Below, piece after piece: positions 41,979 through 45,935 of a DNA stretch of 64,000 bases. Made by a program: the position numbers and the translations under genes. Location of the stretch: contig BTVJ01000032.1 of assembly GCA_045863395.1 (NCBI GenBank), positions 18,159 to 82,158 of the forward strand, given 5' to 3'. The notes below the pieces were generated by a model, which saw only the letters and a program-made list of their open reading frames with translations, searched no databases and had not been told where the DNA came from. The number at the start of each line of letters is the position of its first letter. Position 1 is the first letter of the stretch. This DNA comes from Myxococcales bacterium (lineage in GTDB: Bacteria; Myxococcota_A; UBA9042; JABWCM01; BTVJ01).

Positions 41979-42635
41979 ATGGCGACGACAGTCCGCGAGA
42001 TCGCAGGCTTCCTGGACGAACGCGGGATCAAGTACGACATCAAGGGAGACTCCCGCATCGTGACCGGCTTCCGCACCAAGTCCTTCACCAACGTGGAGGG
42101 CGAGAAGTCCATCGTGGTCGTGATCCTGCTCCAGGAAGATGGCCGATACTTCCAGGTGTACGCGCCTCTGGCCATGCGCGCGGAGGGGCCCCACCAGGAG
42201 GCCTTCATGAAGGCCTGCATGGCCGTGCAGTGGAAGACCAAGCTCATCCAGTTCGAGATGGATCCCCAGGACGGCGAGATCCGCCCGACCGTGGAGTTCC
42301 CCCTGGAGGATGCGCCCCTCACGGCGGCCCAGCTCCACCGGAGCATCGGGGGCCTGATCACGCTGCTGGAGGAGTACTACCCGGTGCTGGAGAAGGCCCT
42401 GAAGACCGGGCAGGTCGAGTTCCCCGAGGAACCCCAGGACCGCATGATGCGCATGCTCCAGGAGATGATGAGGACGGTGGACCCCCTCCGGATGCAGCTC
42501 GCGGCGACGGTGGCGCGCATCACGGAGCTTCGTGAGACCGGCGGAGATGCCGTGACCATCGGAGTGCTGGAGCGGGAGGCGCAGCGGCTCCAGGCGGCCA
42601 TCGCTGCCTCGTCGGGGGGACCAACGGAGCTATAG
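41979..42635 (+). CDS. YbjN-domain (putative sensory-transduction / chaperone-like) protein (218 aa)
   Basis: ATG at 41979 with GGAGGGAACCACC upstream. MATTVREIAGFLDERGIKYDIKGDSRIVTGFRTKSF...YFQVYAP matches the YbjN-family pattern. Internal to the ORF-track ORF 41520..42635. Confidence 0.55.
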   Translation: MATTVREIAGFLDERGIKYDIKGDSRIVTGFRTKSFTNVEGEKSIVVVILLQEDGRYFQVYAPLAMRAEGPHQEAFMKACMAVQWKTKLIQFEMDPQDGEIRPTVEFPLEDAPLTAAQLHRSIGGLITLLEEYYPVLEKALKTGQVEFPEEPQDRMMRMLQEMMRTVDPLRMQLAATVARITELRETGGDAVTIGVLEREAQRLQAAIAASSGGPTEL

Positions 42636-42686
42636 GGACGCCGGTGAAACCGGGGGGGGCATCCAACAGCATCGTGAGGAGTCCAC

Positions 42687-45600
42687 GTGGCCGAGATTCA
42701 CGCAACGACCCGGAGCATCCTCGCCTGGGCCAAGCGCGCGGCGCTGGCCGCCAGGCGCGACTCGCTGACCCTACCCGACCTGCTGTGCGGCCTCTACGCC
42801 GTGCGGGAGGACACCACCGTGGCGCCGCTGCTCGCAGGGCGAGCGCAGCACTGGGCCGACCCAGTGGTCTCTGGGTGGGAGAGCGCGGCCGGAGTCGACG
42901 AGACGGACCGCAAGTTTCCCCTGGACGACGTGGTCCGAGACTTGGTGCGCCGGGTCCACGACAAGGACCCGGCGCTTCCCCCGGCGCTCCTGCTGGAGGA
43001 GCTGCTCAGGCACGGCGAGGCCTTCCAGCGGCCGGCGGAGCGGGCGCTCTCGCCCATGCTCCGGCGCCTGGACGAAGCTCGGGATCTGGCGGACCGTCTG
43101 GTCGCTGCGCTGAAGGAGCGCGTCTTCGGCCAGGACCAGGCGATCCGCGCCCTGGGGGAGGCCGCCTTCCACGCGACCGTCTCACCACCTTCCCAGGGTC
43201 CCCGCGGCGTGCTCACCTTCCTCGGGCCCTCCGGCGTCGGCAAGACCTGGCTCGCCGAGTGCTTCGCCGAGGAGCTGGCGCGCATCCGGGGTGAAGCCAT
43301 CGGCTTCCGCCGGTTCGACATGGGCACCTTCGGTGGCCCACAGAACTTCGAGCAGCTCTTCGGCACGGAGCAGTTCTACAAGGGGAGCCGCCCGGGGACC
43401 TTGACCGGGTTCGCGAAGGACACCCCCCGCGCCGTCATCGTCCTCGACGAGCTGGAGAAGGCCCACCCGACGACCCTGCAGGCGCTGTTGGCGGTGTTCG
43501 ACAAAGGAGAGGTGGTCGACAAGGCGCTGGAGCGCCCCGTGGACTTCCGCGGCACGTGGTTCATCGTGACGACCAACCTGGGGCAGCAGCTCTTCGCGGG
43601 CCCCAACAGCGCTGGCGTGCTCCACGCCGGCGGCGCGTCCCCGGAGCTGGTCTACGACATCCTGACCGCGCGGGGCGAGGCGGGCGCAGAGGGCTCTACG
43701 CCCGGCCTGCCGCCCGAGCTGGTCTCGCGGTTGGCGAAGGGAGGCGCCGTGGCGCTCGGTGCGCTGGAGACACGTCACACCTTGCGCATCGTGGGGCGGG
43801 CGTGCGAGACGGCGTCGGACACCCCCAGCGTCCGCCCGTCCCGCGATGCGGCGTTCATGCTCCTCCTGTCGCTGCTCCCCCAGCTCGACGCCCGCCGGGT
43901 GGCCGCCCGCACCTCCACCTGGGCCTCGGAGCTGGTGCGCGGGGCCCACCAGGTGTGTCGCAGCGAGCTGCACGCCGCCAACCCCGAGCGCCTGTCGGTG
44001 CGCGTGGAGGTGGTGGGCGAAGCCGCGGCGTGGCTGCGCGCGCGCCTGGAAGCCCCGAGGCTCCGGGTGCTGGTCGTCGACGACGGAGACGATGTGCGGC
44101 GCCTCGTCGCGGCGGAGCTGGGGGCAAGCGTCGAGGTGCAGCGAGCCACGTCCGGGGAGGCGGTTGCCCTGGCCCAGCGCCTGCGGCCCGATGTGGTGCT
44201 CCTGGACCTGTGCATCGACCAACCCCAGAGCAGCGCTGTGGTCACGGGCGGCGACGCCGTGCTGGAGGCGCTGCGCACAGCGCTGCCCTGGCTCCCCGTC
44301 GTGCTCTTCAGCGAGAACGTGGATGGGCGCGGCGCCTTCGAGTCAGTCGTCGCGCGCGTGCTCGCACGGGGCGGCGCCCGCGCCTTCATCCCGCTCCGCC
44401 GGGACCACACGGACCCGCTCGCCGCCGAGGATCTGGTCGCGCGGGTGCGGGCGGTGGTGGACGATGTGCTGCTCGACCGGGTCCTCCGCGAGCAGGTCCG
44501 GGCCCACAAGGCGGTGCGGCTTCGGACGGAGTTCGCGTGGGACGCCGGGGCCACCGAGGTGGTCGCCCGCATCGTCGGGGTCTCCGAGCAGGTGGCCATC
44601 GCCGCTGCCGACCGCTCCGCGTCCATCCGCTTCGCCGGCATCCCCACCGACCGCCTCGACGACCTCGTCGGGCTGGAGCGCGCGCGGCGACGCCTGCGCC
44701 AGGTCGTGCGCTGGCTGTCCGACCCGAGCACCCTCGAAGCCTTCGGCGCACGCCCGCCGCGGGGCTTCTTGTTGGCAGGTCCTCCCGGGACGGGAAAGAC
44801 GATGCTCGCCCGCGCCCTGGCCGGCGAGGCGGGGCTGCCGTTTCTGGCCATGTCGGCCGGCGAGCTCCAGTCCAAGTGGGTGGGGGAGTCGGAGGAGCGC
44901 ATCCGCGAGCTCTTCCAACGCGCCCAGGCCTACGCCCCGGCCATCGTGTTCATCGACGAGATCGACGCCGTGGCGGGGCGCCGGGGCGAGGTCGCGACCC
45001 ACGCCCACTCGGTGCTCAACCAGCTCCTCGCGTGCATGGACGGCTTCCAGGTGGCCGACCGCTCGGTGTTCGTGCTCGCCGCCACCAACCACCCCGAGGG
45101 GCTCGACCCCGCCATCCGGCGCCCGGGGCGCTTCGACGAGGTCATCGCGGTGGAGCGACCCAACGCGGCCGCCCGGCAGACCTTCTTCGAGCGCCGCCTG
45201 GCCCCCCTCGACGTGAGCGGGGCCGATCTGCCCCGGCTGGTGCGTGCCACGGCCGGTTTGACTCCGGCGGAGCTGGACCGCATCGCCCGCGAGGCGGCCT
45301 ACGCGGCGGCGGCCGACGGGCGGCAGAGACTGGAGGGAGCCGACCTCCTCGACGCCGCCCGCCTGGTGCGCTTCGGCGCCGAGCGAGAGGACCTGCAGGT
45401 GCGCCCCGACGAGCTGCGCGTGACCGCCTGGCACGAGGCGGGCCACGCGGTAGCCCACCTGACCCTGCTCCCCGATGATCCCATCGAGCTCCTGACCATC
45501 GTTCCCAATGAGCGGGGCGCCCTCGGCTTCCTGGCATCGCAGCGGGACGAGGCACGGCACGACCTGACGCGGGACCGGGTCCGGCGTCAGCTGGTCGTCG

Positions 45601-45935
45601 CACTCGCTGGGCGCGAGGCCGAGCGCCGCCTGGGCGGCGACGACGCATTGACCGCGGGCGCCCGCAGCGACCTGGAGCAAGCGACCCGCCTCGCGGCGGC
45701 GGCCGTCGGGGAGTGGGGCTTCGACGAGGCGGTGGGCCCCCTGTTCGCGCCGGCCCTCGGAGACCCGGCCCTGGTGCGACGCCGCGCCCGCGTGTGGCTC
45801 GCAGAGGCAGCCCAGGCGGCGAAGGCGCTCCTCGACGAGCGCCAGGACCTCGTCGCGGCGCTTGCCGAGGCGCTGCTCGAGCGCGAGTCCCTGGACGGGG
45901 CGGCGGTGGCGGAGGTAGCGGCGGAGGTGCGGTAG
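42687..45935 (+). CDS. Multidomain AAA+ unfoldase-protease fusion: Clp-N-like domain, ClpB/ClpA D2-type AAA+ module, CheY-like receiver (REC), FtsH-type AAA module and M41 zinc peptidase (1082 aa)
   Basis: GTG at 42687 with GAGGAG 6 nt upstream. FGQDQAIRALGEAA...LTFLGPSGVGKTWLAECFAEEL, VIVLDELEKAHPTTLQALLAVFDKGEVVD and TWFIVTTNLG match ClpB D2. RVLVVDDGDDVRRLVAAELGASVEVQRATSGEAVALAQRLRPDVVLLDLCID is REC. GFLLAGPPGTGKTMLARALAGEAGLPFLAMSAGELQSKWVGESEERIRELFQRAQAYAPAIVFIDEIDAV is the FtsH AAA module. VTAWHEAGHAVAHLTL is the M41 HExxH motif. Confidence 0.8.
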   Translation: MAEIHATTRSILAWAKRAALAARRDSLTLPDLLCGLYAVREDTTVAPLLAGRAQHWADPVVSGWESAAGVDETDRKFPLDDVVRDLVRRVHDKDPALPPALLLEELLRHGEAFQRPAERALSPMLRRLDEARDLADRLVAALKERVFGQDQAIRALGEAAFHATVSPPSQGPRGVLTFLGPSGVGKTWLAECFAEELARIRGEAIGFRRFDMGTFGGPQNFEQLFGTEQFYKGSRPGTLTGFAKDTPRAVIVLDELEKAHPTTLQALLAVFDKGEVVDKALERPVDFRGTWFIVTTNLGQQLFAGPNSAGVLHAGGASPELVYDILTARGEAGAEGSTPGLPPELVSRLAKGGAVALGALETRHTLRIVGRACETASDTPSVRPSRDAAFMLLLSLLPQLDARRVAARTSTWASELVRGAHQVCRSELHAANPERLSVRVEVVGEAAAWLRARLEAPRLRVLVVDDGDDVRRLVAAELGASVEVQRATSGEAVALAQRLRPDVVLLDLCIDQPQSSAVVTGGDAVLEALRTALPWLPVVLFSENVDGRGAFESVVARVLARGGARAFIPLRRDHTDPLAAEDLVARVRAVVDDVLLDRVLREQVRAHKAVRLRTEFAWDAGATEVVARIVGVSEQVAIAAADRSASIRFAGIPTDRLDDLVGLERARRRLRQVVRWLSDPSTLEAFGARPPRGFLLAGPPGTGKTMLARALAGEAGLPFLAMSAGELQSKWVGESEERIRELFQRAQAYAPAIVFIDEIDAVAGRRGEVATHAHSVLNQLLACMDGFQVADRSVFVLAATNHPEGLDPAIRRPGRFDEVIAVERPNAAARQTFFERRLAPLDVSGADLPRLVRATAGLTPAELDRIAREAAYAAAADGRQRLEGADLLDAARLVRFGAEREDLQVRPDELRVTAWHEAGHAVAHLTLLPDDPIELLTIVPNERGALGFLASQRDEARHDLTRDRVRRQLVVALAGREAERRLGGDDALTAGARSDLEQATRLAAAAVGEWGFDEAVGPLFAPALGDPALVRRRARVWLAEAAQAAKALLDERQDLVAALAEALLERESLDGAAVAEVAAEVR

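Follow-up and report, generated by a model that had tools for sequence, protein, structure and literature searches.

A two-gene unit for a soluble FtsH-type protease with a second, Clp-type motor, a receiver-like domain and a chaperone-fold partner

What is to be made of a bacterial protein in which two AAA+ motors of different clades, a receiver-like domain set between them and a zinc peptidase are joined in one chain, and of the smaller gene that precedes it? The question is raised by positions 41979-45935 of a 64,000-nucleotide stretch of contig BTVJ01000032.1 (Myxococcales bacterium, assembly GCA_045863395.1), here called the window, where an earlier note, written from the letters alone, had pointed to a 1082-amino-acid fusion of Clp-N, ClpB-D2-type AAA+, receiver, FtsH-type AAA and M41 parts next to a YbjN-like gene. 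The range holds two co-directional genes on the plus strand, and these are a real conserved unit: a soluble FtsH-type protease with a second, Clp-type motor and a receiver-like domain (hereafter the protease), plus a partner of chaperone fold.

The partner gene (41979-42635; GenBank GMV41632.1) starts with ATG and specifies 218 amino acids and, after a gap of 51 bp, the protease open reading frame (ORF; 42687-45935; GMV41633.1, hypothetical protein AMXMBFR64_33490) starts with GTG and specifies 1082. Each has a candidate ribosome-binding site (Table 1), the GTG start matches the N-termini of homologues, and the guanine-plus-cytosine (GC) content of the protease ORF by codon position, 0.80/0.50/0.92, is that of the real genes of this window, the whole of which has 72% GC. 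A scan of 41700-46300 for promoters and terminators found none, as is to be expected at 72% GC in a genome that does not keep to the sigma-70 consensus.

How sure is the architecture? Starting at the C-terminal end, Pfam places Peptidase_M41 above threshold at residues 907-1076 (4.9e-28), with H916-E917-x-x-H920 (the HEAGH of the earlier note), E979 and D995, and ahead of it, also above threshold, AAA at 695-823 (9e-52) and AAA_lid_3 at 846-887. Over its last 427 residues the protein is collinear with the entire cytosolic region of FtsH (PDB 2dhr residues 31-459, 273 bits), the top Foldseek match is FtsH 3kds with a template-modelling score of 0.70 normalised to target, and NCBIfam FtsH_fam extends over 657-1071 at 346 bits, which is below the family cut-off of 600. 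Taken alone, the second AAA segment scores 237 bits with the NCBIfam model for FtsH, 210 with CDC48 and 206 with PAN, so that 'FtsH-type' is the best label for it by a modest margin; it has Walker A K704/T705, Walker B D757/E758, sensor-1 N801, the arginines R812/R815 of the second region of homology, and a pore-loop aromatic, W731, within SKWVGESE. The beta-hairpin, which is long and peculiar to this family, and the linker that lead into it gave no family match and are conserved in the family alignment. PAN models start aligning near residues 606-631, and so the hairpin may be what is left of an N-ring element, or an analogue of one.

The first motor is matched by Pfam AAA_2 above threshold at residues 173-305 (2.8e-29) and by the NCBIfam ClpA/ClpB/ClpV D2 models over approximately 131-303, aligns to residues 537-715 of ClpB in PDB 1qvr (91 bits), and has a D2-type large subdomain at 174-305 in the AlphaFold2 model, which was built from a 31-sequence family alignment and has a mean predicted local distance difference test score (pLDDT) of 84.5 and a predicted template-modelling score of 0.69. 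The D2 label of the earlier note stands, but not the specification of ClpB, since the D2 models of ClpA (95 bits), ClpB (92.5 bits) and ClpV (89 bits) score about equally, and 'Hsp100 D2-type' is the better description. Walker A is K186/T187, Walker B D254/E255, the pore-loop aromatic Y231 and sensor 1 N297, while the lid carries R348 at the Arg-finger position and a sensor-2-like D401/R403, the putative roles of R348 and R403 being assigned by position against ClpB D2. ClpB_D2-small is not matched by Pfam, nor does the excised 305-460 segment have any Pfam match. The approximately 120 residues that precede this motor are all-alpha, and the ClpA and ClpB models match the D2 part only; there is no D1. 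As for these N-terminal residues, Pfam does not detect Clp_N in the protease, the excised N-domain included. Against a Clp_N profile made from retrieved ClpC and ClpB proteins, the family N-domain nevertheless aligns by hhalign with an E-value of 3.7e-5 (probability 71-78%, 107-108 columns, score approximately 34) and with both repeats in register, whereas the controls (other helical family regions, reversed sequence and 20 column-shuffled versions of Clp_N) all score 18.5 or less. The model has six helices where Clp_N has eight, and the N-domain is regarded as a degenerate Clp_N-like one, the weakest part of the architecture.

A word-indexed search brought in 30 further full-length homologues of 999-1159 amino acids, on independent contigs and mostly from metagenome-assembled genomes (MAGs) of Myxococcota, with alignment identities to the window protein of 29-70%. 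Throughout all 31 there is no variation at K186/T187, D254/E255, N297, R348 and R403 of the first motor, at K704/T705, D757/E758, N801 and R812/R815 of the second, or at H916, E917, H920, E979 and D995 of the protease; the pore-loop aromatics are kept in 28 of the 31 (Y231) and 26 of the 31 (W731), and among 172 sequences of the wider family the catalytic and pore-loop residues are also largely conserved. With the catalytic residues invariant, both motors and the protease are predicted to be active. Nor is there, across the 31, any hydrophobic 19-residue window at a conserved position; no transmembrane segment is thus conserved and the protein is soluble, and Pfam finds no FtsH_ext in it. Very probably, then, to judge from its sequence, the large protein is an ATP-dependent soluble protease.

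Such a fusion could have been an artefact of assembly, which the earlier note had named as what would undo it. That is ruled out by the uninterrupted architecture in 30 homologues of independent assemblies and by the presence of the core in at least 139 sequence clusters. The five parts that the note had listed are borne out by Pfam, NCBIfam, AlphaFold2 and profile comparison, the Clp_N part being degenerate and the least sure of them, and so is the absence of a membrane anchor. That a single chain would both unfold, driven by ATP, and degrade finds good support in the invariant catalytic residues, which predict as much.

The clusters with the AAA_2-REC-like-AAA-M41 core come from several phyla. 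A HMMER search yielded at least 150 representatives, each above 660 bits, which were aligned together with the first homologue set; among the matches listed, 75 of the 171 aligned have the N-domain/AAA_2/REC-like/AAA/M41 architecture, and in a further 64 another N-terminal region, of 43-1093 residues, precedes that core. By Pfam, that region is a Ser/Thr kinase with TPR and WD40 in P0240, an RNase H1 N-terminal domain in P0234 and, as a weak match, Clp_N-like repeats in P0203; in P0182, P0244 and P0245 it is kinase-like by eye only. The swapping suggests that a single degradation engine is served by differing inputs, for recruitment or for sensing. No PLSDB plasmid record covers 80% or more of the protease, no curated NCBIfam or Pfam family covers the whole of it, and no description of its architecture was found in a literature search.

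Is the gene ahead of it a chance companion? The loci compared were 8 found by exact protein look-up and 27 species-representative genome loci found via the partner, and the two genes adjoin each other, as what is here termed the cassette, in 18 loci including the window (13 of the 27 species-representative ones). Mostly the partner is directly upstream on the same strand with a gap of 10-210 bp, though it is downstream of the protease in L013, L022 and L032, and divergent in L010. The phyla are Myxococcota, Chloroflexota, Sumerlaeota and Acidobacteriota, plus unclassified MAGs, and every cassette locus collected comes from a MAG. All-against-all ORF clustering of 19 loci gave just the two genes and their alternative-frame shadows, the partner being the sole neighbour common to three or more loci. 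One cassette, in L033 (CAZZLC010000005.1), is on a contig labelled uncultured Enterobacteriaceae bacterium, yet has 70% GC, and that contig is probably mis-binned; a paper on an Enterobacteriaceae megaplasmid does mention FtsH-like genes.

The partner was described in the earlier note as YbjN-like, and this holds for the fold that the model predicts, an alpha-beta chaperone fold of the CesT/YbjN kind, though YbjN PF10722 itself remains below threshold (19.7 bits against a gathering score of 22). Its best structural match is DUF2170/YjfI, the CesT/Tir-type neighbour of YjfJ-type PspA (PMC11237479). There were no precomputed Pfam domains in 13 partner homologues, and a profile search of PDB sequences with the partner returned nothing; the widespread YbjN-like subfamily to which it belongs has no Pfam model match. 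After the fold comes a helical extension, modelled with lower confidence at 150-170, which varies in length or is deleted among homologues and becomes Gly/Pro/Ser-rich towards its end, and then a tail for which the model shows disorder (pLDDT below 50 at 214-218).

It is by the tail that partners paired with the protease are told from the others. All 17 complete cassette-linked partners have, after the Gly/Pro/Ser-rich stretch, a Pro-containing tail ending in L, F, I or V (GGPTEL, GSPREL, EPPSEF, GPPSVL, RPPDEL and KPPDAI are examples), and none of 12 stand-alone partners has it, their ends being basic and of the ...ALRRADERRR type. Two cases were set aside from the count, L015, where the partner has the tail but only 270 bp separate it from the end of its contig of 3 kb, and L017, with a disrupted reading frame. 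No fusion of partner and protease genes, of the Rosetta stone sort, occurs among 247 proteins. A physical coupling of the partner to the protease through this tail is probable. The stand-alone homologues, of approximately 180-190 amino acids and with basic C-termini, lie among housekeeping genes in Bacteroidota and Rhodothermales (L009, L021, L029, and 8001-8540 of L025, the last from the cultured Prolixibacter denitrificans DSM 27267), and there are homologues in cyanobacteria also (Gloeomargarita, P0101-P0103).

How might the two products work together? On balance the explanation favoured is that the module is made up of an ATP-dependent protease, soluble and complete in itself, and a partner dedicated to it, with a contact through the tail and a switch in the REC (receiver) domain. 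By analogy with FtsH and Hsp100 proteins the large protein would most likely assemble as a ring oligomer, a hexamer, in which substrate would be threaded by the Hsp100 D2-type motor to the FtsH-type motor and on into the M41 zinc-protease chamber. By means of the CesT/YbjN fold type III secretion chaperones bind polypeptide in extended form, and the C-terminal peptide of SspB binds the N-domain of ClpX. The partner would touch the protease through its tail. If the tail docks on the Clp_N-like N-domain, the partner would be a tethering adaptor on the pattern of SspB with ClpX; if instead the tail goes into the pore, as the N-terminal extension of ClpS does in ClpA, it would serve as a degron or a hand-off element. 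By either mode the partner would deliver specific clients, or control their access. The REC domain, lying between the motors, would probably switch assembly or inter-ring coupling, whether by phosphorylation of Asp507 or as a pseudo-receiver.

Which of these two is it? The earlier note had suggested gating by phosphorylation and had looked to orphan histidine kinases. AlphaFold2 gives a (beta-alpha)5 receiver fold at 459-575, and the NCBIfam NtrX receiver matches 460-596 at 41 bits in the whole-protein scan and 30.9 bits with the excised segment, while Pfam Response_reg, at 461-546, stays just short of its gathering score of 30.2 bits, with 25.3 for the whole protein and 29.2 for the excised segment; a homologue, P0028, passes that score at 31.2. 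In the close family, with its motifs LRVLVVDDDD, LVLLDLSI and PVxLFSEN, D465 is present in 29 of the 31, the phospho-acceptor D507 in 30 and S542 in 28, and the second acidic position, D466, is D or E; in the wider family D507 is found in 131 of the 142 sequences covering the position, and D at position 466 in 75 of 172. The layout of REC, long alpha5 and AAA+ is the same as in activators of the NtrC1/DctD type, where the receiver controls ring assembly. As to possible inputs, a GAF-HisKA-HATPase_c kinase divergently adjoins the cassette in two species, both from a single subclade (L002/L030 and L020), and an NtrC-type regulator precedes it in one Chloroflexi locus. Ser/Thr kinases recur as well, overlapping the protease start in L004, near the cassette in L006, L008 and the window, and fused in P0240. 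What stands of the gating proposal is the fold with D465/D466, D507 and S542, and what stands of the kinase is that one subclade. Given a REC domain lacking the canonical lysine and a kinase adjacent in one subclade only, phospho-gating is plausible and unproven; the scales are tipped slightly against it, and a pseudo-receiver that governs assembly is as possible as phospho-control.

Several observations weigh against the explanation favoured here. The canonical lysine at the end of beta5 is present in 0 of the 31, its KP motif being replaced by GGARGFLP, and in the most distant members the REC domain is either largely deleted (P0030, which retains the partner) or degenerate (P0032). In the wider family the acidic pair and the serine are kept in only about half, which tells against phospho-gating in particular, and outside L002/L030 and L020 no histidine kinase adjoins the cassette, most loci having none nearby. 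For its part, the partner family occurs without the protease in Bacteroidota and Rhodothermales, and P0028 in L004, though full-length, has no adjacent partner, while P0203, with its different N-terminus, is alone among housekeeping genes; the partner is thus not universally required. Oligomeric state and ring stacking, moreover, are presumed from the parent families, and a REC domain inserted between rings might prevent them from stacking coaxially, in which case the two motors could act separately.

At its most ambitious, the proposal of a protease with a tail-linked partner becomes that of a regulated proteasome-like machine of bacteria, a metalloprotease built as a heterotypic double ring of Hsp100-D2 and FtsH units, whose assembly or inter-ring coupling would be switched through the internal REC domain or, in other branches, through fused Ser/Thr kinase sensor modules, and with a chaperone-fold adaptor tethered by its C-terminal peptide. 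That this is so in full is unlikely. If true, it would be a new logic for the signal-dependent destruction of specific clients, with a possible role in developmental or conflict responses in Myxococcota and other phyla.

Could the partner instead be the victim? In this account it is a regulated substrate whose tail is an FtsH-type degron and whose chaperone-fold domain sequesters or inhibits a client, perhaps an effector that is toxic, perhaps a regulator. Its destruction by the protease on a signal, via REC or a kinase, would set that client free, as happens with the loss of an antitoxin or an anti-sigma factor. FtsH is established to recognise non-polar C-terminal tails (ssrA tag, LpxC), and the partner tail is cassette-specific, disordered and ends in L, F, I or V; the fold that it matches is one whose CesT-type members keep clients extended, and the close spacing of the two genes in a tight operon recalls pairs of the toxin-antitoxin kind. 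The 19 loci, however, offer no third conserved gene as candidate client, and a long flexible linker before the tail is typical of tethering adaptors. Degron and docking peptide are not distinguished by the present evidence, and the victim role is to be judged as unlikely.

The variable surroundings raise another prospect, that of a conflict or anti-phage module whose protease is an infection-triggered effector, or an activator of one, within a defence island. Neighbourhoods rich in TIR, NYN, CHAT, STAND, vWA, Ser/Thr kinase, PP2C and radical SAM genes, a patchy spread over Myxococcota, Chloroflexota, Sumerlaeota and Acidobacteriota, the swapping of N-terminal domains in the wider family (kinase-TPR-WD40 among them) and the resemblance of the classical AAA module to the anti-phage ATPases IetA/IteA would all fit. 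But large Myxococcota genomes often have neighbourhoods of this sort in any case, no defence gene is among the conserved neighbours, some members are among housekeeping genes, and the architecture is on no PLSDB plasmid; a defence role is improbable. Assignment to a known defence system was rejected, PADLOC 2.0 giving generic AAA matches only (IetA, TRIP13, DolB) and none for the partner, and not both genes of one system.

In the window the immediate neighbour of the partner on the other side is a PspA/IM30 gene (41009-41896, minus strand; Pfam 42.2 bits against 33.9), and the divergent arrangement with a PspA-like operon that the earlier note had remarked on is real. It is not conserved: with the window PspA, DO-GTPase-like, CHAT and other neighbouring proteins, tblastn found no counterpart in 35 related loci, save for the NYN gene in L001, and none of L001-L008 has a PspA_IM30 annotation. 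A functional link of the cassette to that PspA/DO-GTPase/CHAT operon is accordingly rejected. That the protease is a Vps4-like machine for disassembling and degrading the neighbouring PspA, a bacterial ESCRT-III protein, with the CesT-like partner as PspA chaperone, is scarcely credible when the partner is the only neighbour shared in related loci, whatever might be read into a PspA of 42 bits divergently adjacent at 82 bp from the partner start, a best structural match of the partner to DUF2170/YjfI, and a second-motor pore loop, SKWVGESE, which we take to resemble the Vps4/Cdc48 type and not the MFVG of FtsH. The PspA gene begins a divergent run of five genes (32726-41896, minus strand; the other four are in Table 1), which could be a system in its own right, for membrane stress or for conflict; PspA-DO-GTPase associations are mentioned in PMC11237479.

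Among the remaining surroundings, an NYN gene is beside the cassette also in the closest relative, L001, and a giant Tubulin_2 protein, of which the window has one in a minus-strand run of very large genes (1842-13881), is encoded just upstream of the cassette in L007 too. The type IV coupling protein gene (Table 1) hints that part of the window may lie in an integrated conjugative element. L004 has a different operon solution for the same protease: over 8982-13644 the gene for a 339-amino-acid Ser/Thr kinase overlaps the P0028 start codon and that for a 104-amino-acid RyR-domain protein overlaps the stop, with several TIR-TPR proteins around. L001 encodes, at 18566-21886 on the minus strand, an uncharacterised single-chain AAA-protease of another make, a 1106-amino-acid fusion of two classical AAA modules and a Trypsin_2 serine protease, whose gene adjoins HSP70 (16745-18559) and radical SAM genes.

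Table 1. Positions in the window of the parts of the two genes and of other genes (residues are those of the partner or the protease).
Feature	Residues	Window positions	Strand	Remarks
Partner ribosome-binding site, GGAGGG, Shine-Dalgarno-like		41966..41971	+	7 nt 5' of partner start; read from sequence
Partner, CesT/YbjN (type III secretion chaperone-like) fold	1-145	41979..42413	+	
Partner, helical extension	146-208	42414..42602	+	Model helices 152-166, 169-187, 191-211
Partner, conserved C-terminal tail ASSGGPTEL-COOH and stop	209-218	42603..42635	+	Proposed tethering peptide or degron
Protease ribosome-binding site, GAGGAG, Shine-Dalgarno-like		42676..42681	+	5 nt before GTG; read from sequence
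Protease, N-domain, all-alpha, putative degenerate Clp_N-like double repeat	1-112	42687..43022	+	Six helices in AlphaFold2; hhalign
Protease, first motor, large subdomain, Hsp100 D2-type AAA+	123-310	43053..43616	+	Pfam, NCBIfam, PDB match
Protease, first motor, small (lid) subdomain, alpha/beta	311-455	43617..44051	+	AlphaFold2 secondary structure
Protease, REC domain with long alpha5 helix (577-605)	456-605	44052..44501	+	Pfam, NCBIfam, AlphaFold2 fold
Protease, beta-hairpin (608-636) and linker to second motor	606-655	44502..44651	+	AlphaFold2 strands 608-619, 624-636
Protease, second motor, classical-clade FtsH-type AAA	656-900	44652..45386	+	Pfam AAA and AAA_lid_3; NCBIfam
Protease, M41 zinc metallopeptidase and stop	901-1082	45387..45935	+	Pfam; PDB collinearity; Foldseek
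1444-aa protein with DUF6782 putative metallopeptidase segment		1842-6176	-	
1358-aa Tubulin_2-like protein		8069-12145	-	
931-aa TraD/VirD4/TrwB-like type IV coupling protein		20081-22876	+	TrwB_AAD_bind, TraG-D_C
1340-aa protein, C-terminal CHAT caspase-like protease domain		32726-36748	-	
887-aa unknown		36613-39276	-	
296-aa protein, weak DO-GTPase2 match		39278-40168	-	
259-aa unknown		40199-40978	-	
NYN-domain protein		46108-47586	-	Convergent with protease
737-aa protein, weak CorA-like C-terminus		47583-49796	-	Convergent with protease
Ser/Thr kinase fused to FGE-sulfatase domain		49806-51326	-	Convergent with protease

How, then, does the pair stand beside what is known? FtsH, by its textbook definition, is a membrane-anchored bacterial AAA+ protease, the anchor being two transmembrane helices that flank a periplasmic domain. 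The protease shares with it an AAA module with second region of homology, the lid, HExxH and the equivalents of E979 and D995, and by analogy its mechanism of processive unfolding and degradation should be that of FtsH; unlike FtsH, the protease lacks transmembrane helices and periplasmic domain, scores 346 bits where membership begins at 600, has KWVG in place of MFVG in the pore loop, and carries approximately 650 extra N-terminal residues with a second motor and REC. Hsp100 motors normally work with a separate ClpP. With the Hsp100 proteins (ClpA, ClpB and ClpC, and the single-ring ClpX and human CLPB/Skd3) there is in common a D2-type (HCLR-clade) module, the pore-loop tyrosine and a putatively Clp_N-like N-domain, and the protease chamber would, as in ClpAP and ClpCP, be supplied by a motor of two rings. 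However, D1 module and M-domain are missing, the order, D2-type first and classical-clade second, is the reverse of that in Hsp100, and the place of ClpP is taken by a metalloprotease that is fused covalently to the motors.

A receiver directly upstream of an AAA+ ring module via a long alpha5 is what NtrC1, DctD and NtrX have, and NtrX is the best receiver match; but here the output is a protease and not a sigma-54 activator, the REC domain is internal between two motors, and the lysine is missing. RssB and CpdR, REC-domain adaptors of proteases, differ in being separate proteins that act in trans. By analogy the partner is like SspB and ClpS in its folded and presumably client-binding domain, flexible linker and short terminal peptide, and its tail correlates strictly with presence of the protease; its fold, CesT/YbjN, is not theirs, and the tail, C-terminal as in SspB, has a different motif. 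There are also the MoxR-vWA-FtsH ternary conflict systems, soluble proteins with two FtsH-type AAA modules of which the N-terminal one is inactive, that need MoxR and vWA partners and are enriched in Myxococcota-like multicellular bacteria (PMC7159879). Like them the protease is soluble and has two AAA+ modules, the second an active FtsH-type ATPase by its residues, but in its first module, which is of the Hsp100 D2 type, the Walker motifs are intact, and M41 and REC are present; with no conserved MoxR or vWA neighbour besides, identity with the ternary system of Kaur et al. (PMC7159879) was rejected. Similarly, PspA-CesT/Tir dyads and PspA-AAA+ associations are described in PMC11237479, but not this protease, and adjacency of a CesT-like gene to PspA is a feature of this window only.

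Should the mechanism proposed above hold, there would be a natural single-chain model for the cooperation of two unlike AAA+ rings, a new wiring of two-component or kinase signalling directly into proteolysis, and a new type of adaptor, made from a secretion-chaperone fold with a simple C-terminal peptide code; the pairing also opens a way, by a link to function, into one subgroup of the YbjN-like proteins, which are poorly understood. Resembling both FtsH and the two-ring proteases of the ClpAP type, and belonging to neither, the protease is an undescribed variant among AAA+ proteases, a soluble FtsH unit permanently coupled to a motor of a different clade and to a signalling domain.

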